Assembly: GCF_006345805.1 (NCBI RefSeq)
Contig: NW_021834890.1
Span: 1 to 42,209 of the forward strand
From: Octopus sinensis
Lineage: Eukaryota
Length of the DNA: 42,209 nt
Direction: 5' to 3'
Shown piece by piece: positions 2,058-37,035 of this stretch (position 1 is its first letter; each line of letters starts with the position of its first letter). The notes beneath the pieces were generated by a model. That model was not told where the DNA came from. It made no database searches and was given only the letters and a program-made list of their open reading frames with translations. Both the position numbers and the translations under genes were made by a program.

Positions 2058-2094
2058 AAGAAATTAATGAATGAGAGAGAGAGAATGAGAGAGT

Positions 2095-5000
2095 TGGGAG
2101 AATTTATGGACGAATGAGAGAAAGGAAAGAATTTATAAATGAAAGAGAGAGGGGAAAGAATTTATGGACGAATGAGAGTGGAAAGAATTTATGGACGAAT
2201 GAGAGAGGAAAGAATTTATGGACGAATGAGAGTGGAAAGAATTTATGGACGAATGAGAGTGGAAAGAATTTATGGACGAATGAGAGTGGAAACAATTTAT
2301 GGACGAATGAGAGTGGAAAGAATTTATGGACGAATGAGAGAGGGGAAAGAATTTATGGACGAATGAGAGGGGAAAGAATTTATGGACGAATGAGAGTGGA
2401 AAGAATTTATGGACGAATGAGAGAGGGGAAAGAATTTATGGACGAATGAGAGTGGAAAGAATTTATGGACGAATGAGAGTGGAAAGAGTTTATGGACGAA
2501 TGAGAGTGGAAAGAATTTGTGGACGAATGAGAGAGGGGAAAGAATTTGTGGACGAATGAGAGAGGGGAAAGAATTTATGGACGAATGAGAGAGGAAAGAA
2601 TTTATGGACGAATGAGAGTGGAAAGAATTTATGGAAGAAAGAGTGGAAAGAATTTATGGACGAATGAGAGTGGAAAGAATTTATGGACGAATGAGAGAGG
2701 GGAAAGAATTTATGGACGAATGAGAGGGGAAAGAATTTATGGACGAATGAGAGTGGAAAGAATTTATGGACGAATGAGAGTGGAAAGAATTTATGGACGA
2801 ATGAGAGAGGGGAAAGAATTTATGGACGAATGAGAGGGGAAAGAATTATGGACGAATGAGGGGAAAGAATTTATGGACGAATGAGAGTGGAAAGAATTTT
2901 GGACGAATGAGAGTGGAAAGAATTTATGGACGAATGAGAGAGGAAAGAATTTTATGGATGGACGAATGAGAGTGGAAAGAATTTATGGAAGAAAGAGTGG
3001 AAAGAATTTATGGACGAATGAGAGTGGAAAGAATTTATGGACGAATGAAAGAGGGGAAAGAATTTATGGACGAATGAGAGGGGAAAGAATTTATGGACGA
3101 ATGAGAGGGGAAAGAATTTATGGACGAATGAGAGTGGAAAGAATTTATGGACGAATGAGAGAGGGGAAAGAATTTATGGACGAATGAGAGAGGAAAGAAT
3201 TTATGGACGAATGAGAGTGGAAAGAATTTATGGAAGAAAGAGTGGAAAGAATTTATGGACGAATGAGAGTGGAAACAATTTATGGACGAATGAGAGTGGA
3301 AAGAATTTATGGACGAATGAGAGAGGGGAAAGAATTTATGGACGAATGAGAGGGGAAAGAATTTATGGACGAATGAGAGTGGAAAGAATTTATGGACGAA
3401 TGAGAGTGGAAAGAATTTATGGAAGAAAGAGTGGAAAGAATTTATGGACGAATGAGAGTGGAAACAATTTATGGACGAATGAGAGTGGAAAGAATTATGG
3501 ACGAATGAGAGAGGGGAAAGAATTATGGACGAATGAGAGGGGAAGGAATTATGGACGAATGAGGGGAAAGAATTATGGACGAATGAGAGTGGAAAGAATT
3601 TATGGACGAATGAGAGAGGGAAAGAATTTATGGACGAATGAGAGAGGAAAGATTTATGGACGAATGAGAGTGAAAGAATTTATGGAAGAAAGAGTGGAAA
3701 GAATTATGGACGAATGAGAGTGGAAACAATTTATGGACGAATGAGAGTGGAAAGAATTTATGGACGAATGAGAGAGGGGAAAGAATTTATGGACGAATGA
3801 GAGGGGAAAGAATTTATGGACGAATGAGAGTGGAAAGAATTTATGGACGAATGAGAGAGGGGAAAGAATTTATGGACGAATGAGAGTGGAAAGAATTTAT
3901 GGACGAATGAGAGTGGAAAGAGTTTATGGACGAATGAGAGTGGAAAGAATTTGTGGACGAATGAGAGAGGGGGAAAGAATTTGGACGAATGAGAGAGGGG
4001 AAAGAATTTATGGACGAATGAGAGAGGAAAGATTTATGGACGAATGAGAGTGGAAAGAATTTATGGAAGAAAGAGTGGAAAGAATTTATGGACGACGATG
4101 AGAGTGGAAAGAATTATGGACGAATGAGAGAGGGGGAAAGAATTATGGACGAATGAGAGGGAAAGAATTTATGGACGAATGAGAGTGGAAAGAATTTATG
4201 GACGAATGAGAGTGGAAAGAATTTATGGACGAATGAGAGAGGGGAAAGAATTTATGGACGAATGAGAGGGGAAAGAATTTATGGACGAATGAGAGGGGAA
4301 AGAATTTATGGACGAATGAGAGTGGAAAGAATTTATGGACGAATGAGAGTGGAAAGAATTTATGGACGAATGAGAGAGGAAAGAATTTATGGACGAATGA
4401 GAGTGGAAAGAATTTATGGAAGAAAGAGTGGAAAGAATTTATGGACGAATGAGAGTGGAAAGAATTTATGGACGAATGAGAGAGGGGAAAGAATTTATGG
4501 ACGAATGAGAGGGGAAAGAATTTATGGACGAATGAGAGGGGAAAGAATTTATGGACGAATGAGAGTGGAAAGAATTTATGGACGAATGAGAGAGGGGAAA
4601 GAATTTATGGACGAATGAGAGGGGAAAGAATTTATGGACGAATGAGAGTGGAAAGAGTTTATGGACGAATGAGAGTGGAAAGAGTTTATGGACGAATGAA
4701 AGTGGAAAGAATTTGTGGACGAATGAGAGAGGGGAAAGAATTTGTGGACGAATGAGAGAGGGGAAAGAATTTATGGACGAATGAGAGAGGGGAAAGAATT
4801 TATGGACGAATGAGGGAGGGGAAAGAATTTATGGACGAATGAGAGAGGGGAAAGAGTTTATGGACGAATGAGAGAGGGGAAATAATTTATGGACGAATGA
4901 GAGAGGGGAAAGAATTTATGGACGAATGAGAGAGGGGAAAGAGTTTATGGACGAATGAGAGAGGGGAAAGAGTTTATAAATGAAAGAGAGGGGAAAGAAT

Positions 5001-6050
5001 TTATGGACGAATGAAAGTGGAAAGAATTTATGGACGAATGAGAGTGGAAAGAGTTTATGGACGAATGAGAGTGGAAAGAGTTTATGGACGAATGAGAGAG
5101 GGGAAAGAGTTTATGGATGAATGAGAGAGGGAAAGAGTTTATGGACGAATGAGAGAGGGGAAAGAATTTATGGACGAATGAGAGAGGGGAAAGAATTTAT
5201 GGACGAATGAGAGAGGGGAAAGAATTTATGGACGAATGAGAAGGGGAAAGAGTTTATGGACGAATGAGAGAGGGGAAAGAGTTTATAAATGAAAGAGAGA
5301 GGGGAAAGAATTTATGGACGAATGAGAGAGGGGAAAGAGTTTATGGACGAATGAGAGAGGGGAAAGAGTTTATGGACGAATGAGAGAGGGGAAAGAATTT
5401 ATGGACGAATGAGAGAGGGGAAAGAATTTATGGACGAATGAGAGAGGGGAAAGAATTTATGGACGAATGAGAGAGGGGAAAGAGTTTATGGACGAATGAG
5501 AGAGGGGAAAGAGTTTATGGACGAATGAGAGAGGGGAAAGAATTTATGGACGAATGAGAGAGGGGAAAGAATTTATGGACGAATGAGAGAGGGGAAAGAA
5601 TTTATGGACGAATGAGAGAGGGGAAAGAGTTTATGGACGAATGAGAGAGGGGAAAGAGTTTATAAATGAAAGAGAGAGGGGAAATAATTTATGGACAAAT
5701 GAGAGTGGAAAGAGTTTATGGACGAATGAGAGTGGAAAGAGTTTATGGACGAATGAGAGAGGGGAAAGAGTTTATGGACGAATGAGAGAGGGAAAAGAAT
5801 TTATGGACGAATGAGAGAGGGAAAAGAGTTTATGGACGAATGAGAGAAGGGAAAGAGTTTATGGACGAATGAGAGAGGGGAAAGAATTTATGGACGAATG
5901 AGAGAGGGGAAAGAATTTATGGACGAATGAGAGAGGGGAAAGAGTTTATGGACGAATGAGAGAGGGGAAAGAGTTTATGGACGAATGAGAGAGGGGAAAG
6001 AGTTTATAAATGAAAGAGAGAGGGGAAAGAATTTATGGACGAAAGAGGGA
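2095..6050 (+). repeat. Minisatellite/satellite, 21-23-bp unit GAAAGAATTTATGGACGAATGAGA(GTG/GAGGG), roughly 180 copies
   Basis: Directly visible tandem array, strongly purine-biased on +. Copy number estimated from length. Confidence 0.97.
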
Positions 6051-19987: not shown

Positions 19988-21778
19988 TTATATATAAAAG
20001 TGAAGTTGTGTGAGTGTCTGTCTCCTACGATTTAGATTCCTAACTACTCCCACATTTTGCAGTGCAGTTTAACCAAAACCGGGTATCTTATAGTCGTGAT
20101 TCATATCGAGCCCTTCTAGGTATTAGCGCGCGTCGACGATGAGTCTACGATTTTTAAAATAATTTACTATCATTTTTTTCCATTTTAATGCATTTTTTGC
20201 TATTATATAAGGGAAGTAACTCTCTAAAGATGTCTACGATGAGTCTACGATTTAAAAAAAAATTTACCATAATTTTTTTCCATTTTCAATGCATTTTTTT
20301 CGCTATTATATAAGGGAAGTAACTCTCTAAAAATGTCTACGATTTAAAAAATAATTTACTATCATTTTTTCCATTTTAATGCATTTTTTCGCTATTAATT
20401 AAGGGAAGTAACTCTCTAAAAATGTCTACGATGAGTCAACGATTTAAAAAAAAATTTACCATCATTTTTTCCATTTTCAATGCATTTTTTCCGCTATTAT
20501 TTAAGGGAAGTAACTCTCTAAAAATGTCTACGATGAGTCAACGATTTAAAAAAAATTTACCGTGATTTTTTTGCATTTTCAATGCATTTTTTTCGTAATT
20601 ATATAAGGGAAGTAACTCTCTAAAAATGTCTACGATGAGTCAACGATTTAAAAAAAAATTTACCAGCATTTTTTTCCATTTTCAATGCATTTTTTTCGCT
20701 ATTATTTAAGGGAAGTAACTCTCTAAAAATGTCTACGATGAGTCAACGATTTAAAAAAAAATTTACCATCATTTTTTCCATTTTCAATCCATTTTTTTCG
20801 CTATTATTTAAGGGAAGTAACTCTCTAAAAATGTCTACAATGAGTCTACGATTTAAAAAAAAATTTACCATCATTTTTTCCATTTTCAATGCATATTTTT
20901 CGCTATTATATAAGGGAAGTAACTCTCTAAAAATGTCTACGATTTTTAAAATAATTTACTATCATTTTTTCCATTTTAATGCATTTTTTCGCTATTAATT
21001 AAGGGAAGTAACTCTCTAAAAATGTCTACGATGAGTCAACGATTTAAAAAAAAATTTACTATCATTTTTTCCATTTTGAATGCATTTTTTCCGCTATTAT
21101 TTAAGGGAAGTAACTCTCTAAAAATGTCTACGATGAGTCAACGATTTAAAAAAAAATTTACCATCATTTTTTCCATTTTCAATGCATTTTTTCCGCTATT
21201 ATTTAAGGGAAGTAACTCTCTAAAAATGTCTACGATGAGTCAACGATTTAAAAAAAAATTTACCATCATTTTTTTCCATTTTCAATCCATTTTTTTCGCT
21301 ATTATTTAAGGGAAGTAACTCTCTAAAAATGTCTACAATGAGTCTACGATTTAAAAAAAAATTTACCATCATTTTTTTCCATTTTCAATGCATTTTTTTC
21401 GCTATTATATAAGGGAAGTAACTCTCTAAAAATGTCTACGATTTTTAAAATAATTTACTATCATTTTTTCCATTTTAATGCATTTTTTCGCTATTAATTA
21501 AGGGAAGTAACTCTCTAAAAATGTCTACGATGAGTCAACGATTTAAAAAAAAATTTACCATCATTTTTTTTCCATTTTCAATGCATTTTTTTCGCTATTA
21601 TTTAAGGGAAGTAACTCTCTAAAAATGTCTACAATGAGTCAACGATTTAAAAAAAAATAAACCATTTTTTTTCCATTTTCAATGCATTTTTTTGCTATTT
21701 TTTTGGCTATAACTCTCTAAAAATGCTTATATAGTTATTTCCCTTACACACCCGAGCAACGCCGGGCGATACTGCTAG
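19988..21778 (+). mobile_element. Non-autonomous Helitron containing a ~102-bp tandem array
   Basis: 3' hairpin CCCGAGCAACGCCGGG (21751-21766) followed by terminal CTAG|T (21775-21779). 5' end TATATATAAAAG resembles Helitron 5' ends but the TC is not intact. About 16 internal repeats lie at 20135-21725. Confidence 0.8.
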
Positions 21779-31424: not shown

Positions 31425-31640
31425 AGCTCAGTATTTTTTTTTTTGGGTGTTTTTTTTGTGTTTTTCACAACAAAATCTGATATAATTGTAATTTACACAT
31501 TCTGAAAAGAATTTGTAGAAACTTTTGTTAAAAAATACACCTTTTTCTGAAAGTCGTTAAGAAATAAAGTCAACTCGTGTGAATTTTCCAAAACTTTTCT
31601 TCCTACACATAAAAAATTTTTTTCAGGACAAATTTCAATA
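30700..31640. mobile_element. Old long-TIR (foldback/MITE-like) DNA element interrupted by a SINE
   Basis: ~30795-30930 is a degenerate reverse complement of ~31490-31628 (GGAAAATTCACAC / GTGTGAATTTTCC; TTTCAGAGTGTGTA / TACACATTCTGAAA). Confidence 0.5.
30988..31333 (+). mobile_element. tRNA-derived SINE with CORE-like segment (family E)
   Basis: TGGCTCAGTGGTTAGAGCG (A box) … GAGCTCGAATCCC (B box), GTGTTCTTGAGCAAGGCACTTTATT, tail CTTTACCTTTTA. Confidence 0.8.
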
Positions 31641-32098: not shown

Positions 32099-32264
32099 TA
32101 ATTTTTTTACATAAAGTAAATAAAGTAAATAAAGCACAAAAATACAAAGTAAGGATCGACTAGTCACGACTAGCTAGCGCGGATACGCAAGTGCGCGCTC
32201 CGGGGACACTGTTCTCAAGTAGTATCCCAAAAATCGCTGGTTAATTATTTTTAATTATAAAGTA

Positions 32265-32493
32265 GTTCGATTCACTTCAACATTTAAGTTTAATTTGTCA
32301 AAATATTTTCGGCGCTAAAATCCGCGACCTGTTCACTGACAAAAATCCGAGGTCGCGGATTTTAGCGACGAAAATATTTTGACAAATTAAACTTAAATGT
32401 TGAAGTGAATCGAACGGCTTTTGTGTGTTTCTTAAATGGCTTATAAACACCTTCCACGCTGCAATTGTTTTCGTTCCAGCACACGATCTCAGA
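32265..32493. mobile_element. PLE-like inverted terminal-repeat insertion with 13-bp TSD
   Basis: 66-bp arms at 32265-32330 and 32350-32415, with the right arm extended to 32493. TAATTATAAAGTA is duplicated at 32252-32264 and 32494-32506. Confidence 0.8.
32295..32342 (-). ncRNA. Minimal hammerhead, G3-C8 core variant
   Basis: UUGUCA-GUGAACA-G-GUCGC-GGAUUUUA-GCGCC-GAAA-A-UA-UUU-UGACAA: 6-bp stem I and palindromic stem III AAUAUU. The other arm shows the fully paired stem II (GUCGC/GCGAC). Confidence 0.65.
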
Positions 32494-32700
32494 TAATTAT
32501 AAAGTATATATATTTGTAAATAACCAGCATTATTTCATCATGACCCGGAACAAAACTAAAACAGGTTACTTTAAGCGTCGTACACCGTCAATGTTGCGGG
32601 AACCAGGAAGCGAAGAGGGCGGACCCAAACTTTTGAGTATAATTTGTGACTCTTTTTGAACTGATTTAAATTGTTTTGATATTTATAATTCTATACAAAC

Positions 32701-33645
32701 ATGAGCGCCGAACGAATGCATCATATTTCTAAAGAACAATTTGTAAAAATCCGAGTTAAATTTGTAAAATCCATGGACGATATCGATTCCTTTCTCGACG
32801 AAGCTTTGGCAAATGGTTTATTGGCCGATGGACATAAACAGGGAATAGGAGCCCTGAAAAATGTTTACGATCAAGCACGGCAGTTGCATGATTATATATT
32901 AAGGAAACTACCGGATGGGTCCGAGAAATTTGTGTCGGCCTTGAAAAAGTCAAATCATGATCAAATACTTGAGTTATTAGACGATCCAGAAGTCTACCCG
33001 ATGAAGTTTAAGCCACACGGGCGTGTTGTAATAATAAATAATATAGAGTTTGACGATGAGAAGAAATACGAAAAAAGGACTGGAAGCGAAAAGGATGTGG
33101 TGGGTATTGAAAAACTTTTCAAGGAGTTCAGTTTTAATGTTCTAACTTATTCCAATAAAAAAGCGAAAGAAATGAAAGATATAATTACAAAAGAAGCTGA
33201 AAAAAGTACAGCCAGTGAAGACTGTTTCGTTATGTTCTTGATGTCCCATGGGGCCATAGGGAACATTATTGGAATTGATGGTGATGAATTATCTTATTCC
33301 ACTATTAACGACGCTCTAAAGGAGAGTTCTCAGCTGAAAGACAAACCAAAGCTCATTTATATAAACACTTGTCAAGTTAGTTCTGATAAGAAAAATGAAT
33401 ATTTCAACGTTGCAGATCTGTATGTTGCTTTTGCCACTGTCCCCGAACACTTGGCTTTCCGAACTAAGGAAAGTGGTTCTGTTTTCATCGAAAGTTTAAT
33501 CAGTGTTTATGAAAAGAACAAAGAAAAGTGTGACGTCAACTCACTATCCCCTAAAATACATGCTCAAATTCCCAAGGAATCTGGTCAGATTTCAAGTAGT
33601 TACAACACTTTGAAGAAAAAGGTGATACTTCGAGCCACAATTTAA
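32701..33645 (+). CDS. Single-exon CARD-containing caspase-family (peptidase C14A) protein, 314 aa
   Basis: N-terminal ~94-aa death-fold/CARD-like region (…QARQLHDYILRK…FVSALKKSNHDQILELL). Caspase motifs follow: YPM..KPHGRVVIINN, R.GSEKD, DCFVMFLMSHG (His codon 33247-33249), KPKLIYINTCQ (Cys codon 33370-33372), ADLYVAFATVP…AFR…GSVFIESL, Q…NTLKKK. AAACATG context with in-frame upstream TAA at 32686-32688; no internal stops. Confidence 0.93.
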   Translation: MSAERMHHISKEQFVKIRVKFVKSMDDIDSFLDEALANGLLADGHKQGIGALKNVYDQARQLHDYILRKLPDGSEKFVSALKKSNHDQILELLDDPEVYPMKFKPHGRVVIINNIEFDDEKKYEKRTGSEKDVVGIEKLFKEFSFNVLTYSNKKAKEMKDIITKEAEKSTASEDCFVMFLMSHGAIGNIIGIDGDELSYSTINDALKESSQLKDKPKLIYINTCQVSSDKKNEYFNVADLYVAFATVPEHLAFRTKESGSVFIESLISVYEKNKEKCDVNSLSPKIHAQIPKESGQISSSYNTLKKKVILRATI

Positions 33646-34978: not shown

Positions 34979-35275
34979 ATATGTATTCAGTCTTACCAAT
35001 ATCTCTTGTAAATCCCCCCCCCCATTCTTCCAGGTTCTTAAAATTCTTCACTGAGTCTGAAGCCCCTCCATCATCCCATCCCAATCCTTCCCCAATATTT
35101 CCACCTCCCCTGCCAGTAAATGTGACCCACCCTTTGCATACAGTTCCAGCATCACCATTGCTCTATCTCTTCTTCTCTTCACCCAACAACTATTCACCTT
35201 ATTTTCTATCTTATTCAATGCAATTTGTCTCTCATACTTTCCTTTCTTGTCAAATTACCAACATTTTCAATGAGT

Positions 35276-36655
35276 TTATCCAATATTCTTACACACACAC
35301 ACATGGGTATATCCAATATTCTTACACACACACACGGGTATATCCAATATTCTTACCCACACACACGGGTATATCCAATATTCTTGCACACACACACGGG
35401 TATATCCAATATTCTTACACACACACACACACAGGTATATCCAATATTCTTACACACACACACACAGGTATATCCAATATTCTTACCCACACACACAGGT
35501 ATATCCAATATTCTTACACACACACACACAGGTATATCCAATATTCTTACACACACACACACGGGTATATCCAATATTCTTACACACACACACACAGGTA
35601 TATCCAATATTCTTACACACACACACAGGTATATCCAATATTCTTACACACACACACAGGTATATCCAATATTCTTACACACACACACACAGGTATATCC
35701 AATATTCTTACACACACACACACAGGTATATCCAATATTCTTACACACACACACAGGTATATCCAATATTCTTACACACACACACAGGTATATCCAATAT
35801 TCTTACACACACACACACAGGTATATCCAATATTCTTACACACACACACACAGGGTATATCCAATATTCTTACACACACACACGGGTATATCCAATATTC
35901 TTACACACACACACACGGGTATATCCAATATTCTTACACACACACATGGGTATATCCAATATTCTTACACACACACATGGGTATATCCAATATTCTTGCA
36001 CACACACACATGGGTATATCCAATATTCTTACACACACACACATGGGTATATCCAATATTCTTACACACACACACAGGTATATCCAATATTCTTACACAC
36101 ACACACATGGGTATATCCAATATTCTTACACACACACACATGGGTATATCCAATATTCTTACACACACACACATGGGTATATCCAATATTCTTACACACA
36201 CACACATGGGTATATCCAATATTCTTACACACACACACATGGGTATATCCAATATTCTTACACACACACACAGGTATATCCAATATTCTTACACACACAC
36301 ACATGGGTATATCCAATATTCTTACACACACACACATGGGTATATCCAATATTCTTGCACACACACACACGGCTATATCCAATATTCTTACACACACACA
36401 CACGGGTATATCCAATATTCTTACACACACACATGGGTATATCCAATATTCTTACACACACACATGGGTATATCCAATATTCTTGCACACACACACATGG
36501 GTATATCCAATATTCTTGCACACACACACACATGGGTATATCCAATATTCTTGCACACACACACATGAGTATATCCAATATTTTTACACACACACACACA
36601 GGTATATCCAATATTCTTGCACACCCACACACAGGCATATCCAATTTTCTTGCAA
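35276..36655 (+). repeat. Minisatellite, ~29-31-bp unit GGTATATCCAATATTCTT(AC)n, about 45 copies
   Basis: Directly visible; unit length varies with the internal (AC)n. Confidence 0.97.
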
Positions 36656-37035
36656 ACAAAACATTCCTTTAGTCTCGAAGGAAATACACTTAAGCAAGAT
36701 GGTTGCAATTCCCAGAATGGTGACATTCCTGTTTCTCTGTCGGTTTATGAAAGGAGTTTCCAGATTCCCCTCCAGGTAAGCGTTGCATGTCCTGAATGTC
36801 CCCTGGAAAAGACTGATCTCAATTCAACTGCAACCAATATTTTAAGGGCACGCTCTTACGTCAGTGTCCTTTCACTGGAAGATGTGAATTTAGATCACTT
36901 TAACCCTTTTGTTACCATATTTCTGTTGAAATAAACTGATTTTGTTTCAATTAACTCTGAAAATAGTCAAGAATTAAGTAAAACAGCTGTTCTCAGGAAC
37001 CCAAATGAACATGAAACATTAATGGAAATTTTTAA

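Follow-up and report, generated by a model that had tools for sequence, protein, structure and literature searches.

Here, we describe an intact gene for a compact CARD-caspase, located at positions 32701..33645 (forward strand) of the window, i.e., the whole stretch of 42,209 nucleotides of the Octopus sinensis contig NW_021834890.1 that was analysed. In our preferred reading, held with moderate confidence, it belongs to an octopod-specific family of tandem, recombining CARD-caspases and encodes an initiator-type, single-chain enzyme that would be activated by CARD clustering and dimerisation and that would probably act in immunity, its activity being predicted. One paralogue is already published, as the divergent "Octopus caspase-Y1." For the cluster, the Asn motif, and the linker, we found no published description in a literature search covering journals other than subscription ones.

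The gene is made of one frame, from the ATG at 32701 to the stop codon at 33643-33645, and encodes 314 amino acids. This is far beyond chance, since 200 shuffles of the 3.5-kb region produced no stop-free frame longer than 147 aa. Both domains pass the Pfam cut-offs, namely the CARD (residues 18-90, 33.3 bits for a cut-off of 23.9) and Peptidase_C14 (residues 107-308, 112.8 bits), which places the protein among the caspase-domain proteins. Hence, the HMMER search proposed in a preliminary description of this DNA agrees with its account of an intronless compact CARD-caspase. The CARD extends over about residues 7-96 (32719..32988), with six helices in the structural model (pLDDT > 88), and according to Pfam, the alignment, and the model it is followed without any spacer by the large subunit (p20) region (residues 97-226, 32989..33378). 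The alignment then places an 11-residue intersubunit linker, SSDKKNEYFNV (S227-V237, 33379..33411), before the small subunit (p10) region (33412..33642); the short linker and the CARD abutting the protease had both been described beforehand. The closest solved relatives by sequence are of the caspase-3/7 types, and the ESM Atlas gave matches to generic CARD-caspase clusters only. The single frame itself is less special than it had seemed, as the whole protease domain lies in one frame at 14 of 18 unrelated caspase loci of the O. sinensis genome (L013-L030). Oyster CARDs are reported as split over two exons in the available part of PMC7836458. As for the surroundings, a MITE-like palindromic repeat occupies window positions 32259-32500, 200 nt upstream of the gene, and recurs at least 40 times elsewhere in the genome. 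Minisatellite arrays with 27-, 102-, and 33-nt units are found at 2083-6047, 20132-21725, and 35270-36658, respectively.

The catalytic residues and most of the S1 pocket are recognisable. In the family alignment, where several rows are chimeric annotation isoforms and the counts overstate independence, the catalytic His183 (33247..33249, followed by G184) is kept in 23/23 rows, the S1 arginine Arg126 (33076..33078, caspase-1 Arg179) in 22/23, and Arg254 of A252-F-R254 (33460-33462, caspase-1 Arg341) in 20/22; among the 22 rows covering the NTCQV motif (residues 222-226, 33364..33378), all have the Asn that replaces the S1 Gln283 (Asn222 here) and 19 the catalytic Cys (Cys224). S260 was also placed by the alignment. 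The preliminary description had read the dyad, the two arginines, and the changes of Gln to Asn, Ala to Thr, and Gly to Val in the same way. The QACxG pentapeptide of caspases is thus absent. We nevertheless regard NTCQV as a caspase variant and not as a ground for exclusion, given that Asn occupies the Gln283 position in 3 of 67 unrelated caspases (alignment A3), and the part of PMC7836458 at hand describes widely varying active-site motifs in bivalve caspases. As far as the available text of PMC2064784 goes, the caspase S1 pocket is formed by Arg179, Gln283, and Arg341, positions at which metacaspases and paracaspases carry acids. The acidic pocket of the latter (Asp for Gln283, Asp/Glu for Arg341) is not found here, where the residues are Asn222 and Arg254.

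What would such an active site do? Because both S1 arginines are kept, an acidic P1 residue is the predicted specificity. An altered specificity is plausible: the shorter side chain of Asn may loosen the S1 pocket towards Glu, a tentative suggestion that we would not lean on. The Gly after the Cys and the S2 Trp of SWR are also lost, and since these losses add to that of Gln283, one of three S1 residues, activity may be low. The short linker is more unusual than the S1 Asn. The catalytic Cys and the p10 Asp are separated by 14 aa, versus a median of 48 in the 67 unrelated caspases, one of which is as short. Canonical maturation cleavage sites lie about 12 residues from the catalytic Cys. Here, the sole linker Asp follows it by 5 residues, a position for which linker cleavage would be dispensable.

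The six-frame search of the O. sinensis genome returned at least 37 matches and uncovered the paralogue cluster that had been proposed as a check. C26 carries, in tandem at 15.122-15.162 Mb, five paralogues that are intact and single-ORF, a copy with a frameshift, and a copy consisting of a CARD only; two more CARD-only copies, one of them with a stop, are on C15. One paralogue, L002, is identical over 316/316 residues to a protein recorded for both O. sinensis and O. vulgaris. The protein search brought the family to 23 sequences including the query; the 22 named ones come from three Octopus species and Argonauta and are labelled caspase-3, -7, or -8-like. Orthologue-like records are 90% (O. 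vulgaris) and 77% (O. bimaculoides) identical. Conservation of the dyad and both arginines extends to the Argonauta member, which is about 49% identical. The Asn of the NTCQV-type motif is a trait of the octopod family and not a peculiarity of the window copy. Some members resemble decoys: L009, L011, and L012 consist of a CARD only, three records have NTYQ (Cys to Tyr), and L003 has Pro in place of Arg341. The suggestion that the window gene encodes a cFLIP-like regulator fared less well, since the loss of the catalytic Cys or His that defines such pseudo-caspases is seen only in other family rows; the window copy keeps the His-Cys dyad and the S1 arginines.

A profile search against 1.84 billion proteins, extended by a second search, identified the next relatives, P0025 (QACQP) and P0178 (QTCQI), each of which has two CARDs. 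In quick trees, of which one dropped 4 of 173 rows and kept 60 non-family rows and the other used 41 chosen rows, these proteins are sister to the octopod clade (SH-aLRT 99), and the window gene falls in an Octopus clade with caspase-Y1, XP_014790087.1 (SH-aLRT 97-98). L021, whose very long branch lies within the octopod clade, was left out of the counts. The simplest reading of these trees is that the change from Gln to Asn and the shrinkage of the linker took place on the octopod stem. Word-limited searches with P0025 and P0023 found no member in cirrates, vampire squid, or Nautilus, and gained only P0178. By eye, P0025 matches EsCasp10 of Euprymna scolopes as presented in the part of PMC9389742 at our disposal, and the "QACQP" group of EsCasp9/EsCasp10 would thus be the sister of the octopod clade; unlike the window gene, the proteins of this group have two CARDs, a Gln at S1, and longer linkers (23-27, versus 14 here when counted from the Cys to the p10 Asp). 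The O. bimaculoides caspase-Y1 (P0024) shares the clade, the compact CARD-caspase layout, and the S1 Asn (NACQA), but is a paralogue with 63% identity (alignment A3). It is treated as a divergent long branch, "Octopus bimaculoides Casp. Y1," by Krasovec et al. 2023 (PMC10959488), whose available sections do not mention its cluster, motif, linker, or exon structure. Monophyly with the gastropod, bivalve, and annelid caspase-Y of the same authors is possible: with Bulinus KAH9513478.1 (P0043) as the one named Y included, the free tree does not join the two, and the AU test does not reject their joining (p 0.16).

An error of the consensus had been named as a condition that would undermine the motif. 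It is ruled out because NTCQV recurs in independent assemblies and runs, because L002, elsewhere in this genome, and two O. vulgaris records encode it too, and because no other letter occurs at 33364-33378 in the four runs with a complete variant table. The frame is spanned by contigs of five small runs, four of which are RNA by guess (X3, X8, X9, and X14) and one of unknown kind (X6), none being recorded as RNA; none of the joints listed falls inside it. Contig pieces reach 35200 in four small runs, and two RNA-guessed contigs begin at 32619-32620. The unique upstream bin 31442-31598 served to control for DNA content and has a depth of 0-0.38 in four small runs; absent cover was not counted as evidence. 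Among the differences between runs, 21 of 26 classified ones (a subset of those listed) change the amino acid, which is near the neutral ratio, in a mixture of species and conversion tracts. Dense and mostly amino-acid-changing differences concentrate at 33043-33121 (codons 115-141), around the loop with the S1 Arg126. Several of them match an O. vulgaris record, which suggests conversion tracts or divergent alleles. A-to-I editing was considered as a source of the A>G differences and rejected: three of them (33059, 33073, and 33121) are shared with the O. vulgaris record P0002, and the large run X16 contains another two. One contig of the RNA-guessed run X14 has a C>T at 33247 that changes His183 to Tyr, possibly a segregating dead allele.

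How did the family arise? The preliminary description envisaged a retroposed gene or one of recent origin, and the data point elsewhere. There is no A-run of 10 or more downstream of the gene and the hallmarks of a processed retrocopy are missing, the upstream element is common to the tandem copies, a member exists in Argonauta, and no close intron-bearing parent was present among the at least 37 genome matches. Ancient intron loss is possible. The copies are products of DNA duplication and undergo recombination. From codon 196 up to the N gap of C26 (33286..39260, forward strand), the window shares with L002 and the DNA downstream of it (G000:C26:15122k-15117899) a 3' block of about 98-99% identity, which includes the 33-nt-unit minisatellite array; the 5' halves of the two genes are 56-87% alike in sliding windows. 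Before codon 196, L002 agrees with L004 at 150 of 159 informative sites; after it, L002 agrees with the window gene at 80 of 84 (p ~2e-48 at the best cut). Contigs of runs X6, X14, and X16 extend across the junction of the window gene, and both junction types have O. vulgaris records. In DNA runs X1 and X17, but not in X16, the shared 3' block has about double the depth of the unique 5' half, contig depth not being equivalent to copy number. The window gene and L002 may be paralogues or alleles in the genome G000. Two probes of a position of the window contig beside the C26 gap matched repeats only. We also considered splicing between cluster copies, given that four RefSeq isoforms (P0007, P0008, P0011, and P0014) each combine parts of two copies that meet at homologous positions, and rejected it because the CARD-protease joins inspected, which do not include that of P0008, lack GT-AG. 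These isoforms on G000:C26 may stem from recombinant haplotypes or from mis-mapping.

Purifying selection acts on the family, which is nevertheless fast-evolving. The codon model for the six intact copies of the O. sinensis genome gave an omega of 0.57 and rejected omega=1 (2dlnL 27.9), and the NG86 ratio of the window gene to each paralogue ranges from 0.38 to 0.53. The dN/dS is thus not near 1 and, together with the tandem cluster, it fits the earlier idea of a lineage-expanded cephalopod caspase under selection. Positive selection is marginal (M2a vs M1a, 2dlnL 6.1, df 2; no site > 0.82) in a test that gene conversion inflates. At most, this suggests an arms race.

Structure prediction, which had also been proposed, returned a full caspase fold. 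The AlphaFold2 model from 84 sequences has a pLDDT of 94.2 and a pTM of 0.85, with about 85 in the uncut linker; it replaced a model from 16 sequences that was weak in p10 (pLDDT 77). Its best Foldseek matches are caspase-9, -7, and -8, with an E value of 5e-22 to caspase-9. The homodimer predicted for residues 96-314 scored 0.83, versus 0.01 for the best control, with at least 94% contact agreement between runs and pLDDT >= 90. The same mark was attained by 21 of 30 dimers of solved structure and by none of 23 monomers (17/29 and 0/30 for eukaryotes), and, as caspase dimers are already solved, the pass may reflect memorised structures. The subunits of the predicted dimer pair via residues 297-307 (33589-33621) and the linker lies within the interface, i.e., the model predicts the canonical beta-strand homodimer with an uncut linker. 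The search for CARD partners found family copies and two weak matches only, and no activating partner. The gasdermin search gave no match, with an equally silent control.

Upstream of the gene, an Ets site or one-mismatch Ets-IRF composite, GGAAGCGAAG (32606..32615, forward strand), starts 95 nt before the ATG. Its GGAAG core is found in 8/8 copies, at -93 to -101. The longer GGAAnnGAAA, which the available part of PMC4821649 describes as the Ets-IRF composite element of myeloid genes, is exact in 5/8 copies, three of them near-identical (L002, L004, and L006), and has one mismatch in the other three, including the window copy, whose mismatch sits in the IRF half-site. In an unrelated single-ORF caspase-3/7-like family, 5 of 11 copies carry the exact reverse element at -88 to -108, for a background of 0.01 per 80 nt; these 11 copies are related and the element counts as one event. 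Six IRF-domain matches were found at three places in the genome. The element is likely a promoter, and its likeness to Ets-IRF composites is a lead, without being proof, for expression in haemocytes or upon induction. Several C26 copies also show, about 40-70 nt upstream of the ATG, a CAG|GT and, 22-30 nt further on, a pyrimidine tract with AG. This arrangement, degenerate in the window copy, resembles a vestigial 5' UTR micro-intron.

The mechanism that we propose combines these elements. The gene would be transcribed from the likely Ets/IRF-type promoter into a protein with the predicted caspase fold, beta-strand homodimer, and uncut 11-aa linker. Recruitment to a platform by the CARD would drive dimerisation, with no need for linker cleavage, and substrates would be cut after an acidic residue. 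The CARD-only and Cys-to-Tyr copies could act as decoys, and unequal crossing-over could re-pair CARD/p20 halves with p10 halves. The closest mode of working is that of dimer-activated initiators such as caspase-9 and caspase-8, which share the fold and the predicted beta-strand dimer, whereas in the octopus protein the linker is much shorter, the CARD is followed by no spacer, and S1 has an Asn. Some initiator caspases are active without linker cleavage, and Dronc and MALT1 are further examples of activation by dimerisation. Dronc also has a non-QAC motif and cleaves after Glu. Primate inflammatory caspases are encoded by multi-exon genes and have QACRG motifs and long, self-cleaved linkers. 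Apaf-1 is reported as absent in Octopus in Table S2 of PMC10959488, among the parts of that work at hand. As our best reading by analogy, the octopod cluster parallels the primate CASP1/CARD16-18 locus: CASP1/4/5/12 and CARD16/17/18 are, in the available text of PMC11630849, tandem CARD-caspases accompanied by CARD-only and dead copies that underwent repeated conversion and duplication. This is an analogy and not a claim of orthology, and the octopod genes differ in their single ORF, the Asn motif, and the short linker. A role in immune defence is probable in light of this analogy and of the promoter motif.

Could the protein instead be a weak or inactive caspase, serving as a scaffold or decoy that tunes CARD platforms or other caspases in the manner of cFLIP-L or caspase-12? 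The changes of the S1 Gln, the post-Cys Gly, and the S2 Trp together with the very short linker would fit this, as would an omega of 0.57, which is high for a core enzyme. The family has repeatedly yielded Cys-to-Tyr (a Tyr for the catalytic Cys also likens these members to the pseudo-caspases), Arg-to-Pro, and CARD-only forms, and the His183Tyr contig of run X14 shows that dead alleles may be tolerated. However, the dyad would be expendable in a pure decoy, and the His in 23/23 rows, the Cys in 19/22, and both arginines are retained to Argonauta. The window copy itself, with its His, Cys, and two arginines, is unlike cFLIP-L and caspase-12, and an Asn at the S1 position occurs together with an intact dyad in unrelated caspases (3/67). 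We consider the scaffold or decoy unlikely. An active initiator caspase used in developmental, stress, or senescence-linked apoptosis, in which the dynamics of the cluster are a by-product of a repeat-rich genome, seems to us more unlikely still. It would accommodate the marginal site-level positive selection, and octopus mucus proteins labelled "caspase-3/7-like" vary with senescence in what is available of PMC11431876. Yet caspase-2 is listed separately for Octopus in Table S1 of PMC10959488, a source seen in part, and the decoy-like copies, the mosaicism, and the Ets-IRF-like elements match immune loci.

A recent processed copy, a pseudogene, an assembly chimera, or a consensus error might be suspected for an intronless gene on an unplaced contig of 42 kb, the 3' part of which repeats C26 sequence as far as a gap, the more so as the amino-acid-changing run differences (21/26 classified) come near the neutral ratio. 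The orthologue-like records of O. vulgaris (90%) and O. bimaculoides (77%), an omega below 1, the motif and the junction in independent runs, the lack of an A-tail, and the upstream element common to the copies make this explanation very improbable.

If the immune part of our preferred reading is true, the family is a counterpart of the primate CASP1 locus that arose by convergence. A more far-reaching version, which we find rather improbable as a whole, is that octopods independently built an inflammatory-caspase-like immune locus of Ets/IRF-driven, intron-free CARD-caspases, with enzymes that act uncut and accept Glu in an S1 pocket remodelled by the Asn, with CARD-only and dead decoys, and with new specificities that differ between individuals and are made by recombination of CARD/p20 halves with other p10 halves. 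In practice, the family offers small, intron-free, and easily expressed candidates, and a natural test, by the replacement of Gln283 with Asn and by a minimal linker, of two textbook rules, namely that caspases are strictly Asp-specific and that they mature by cleavage of the linker. The database labels of caspase-3/7/8-like are wrong for the family genes, which leads to confounded biomarkers in octopus transcriptomes and proteomes.

The genome search brought up other loci. The second, unrelated single-ORF expansion, of caspase-3/7-like genes, comprises L013, L015-L020, L023, L024, L026, and L029, on C5 and unplaced contigs. Another single-ORF CARD-caspase, with QACRD and a short linker, lies outside the octopod clade (L014:958-2175, G000:C18). 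L054:3511-4560 (G000:C14) encodes a CARD-less single-ORF caspase with SACRN, a short linker, and a long charged insert, and groups within the octopod clade, where its branch is very long. On C18 as well, L051:4301-5101 (G000:C18:26722300) is a single ORF of 267 aa in which a CARD precedes a region that has no match in Pfam and that, by eye, resembles a decayed caspase domain. Finally, a phospholipase A2 exon (Pfam PF05826) is located 10 kb from the C26 cluster, on the reverse strand (L038:1902-2315, G000:C26:15171902-15172315).
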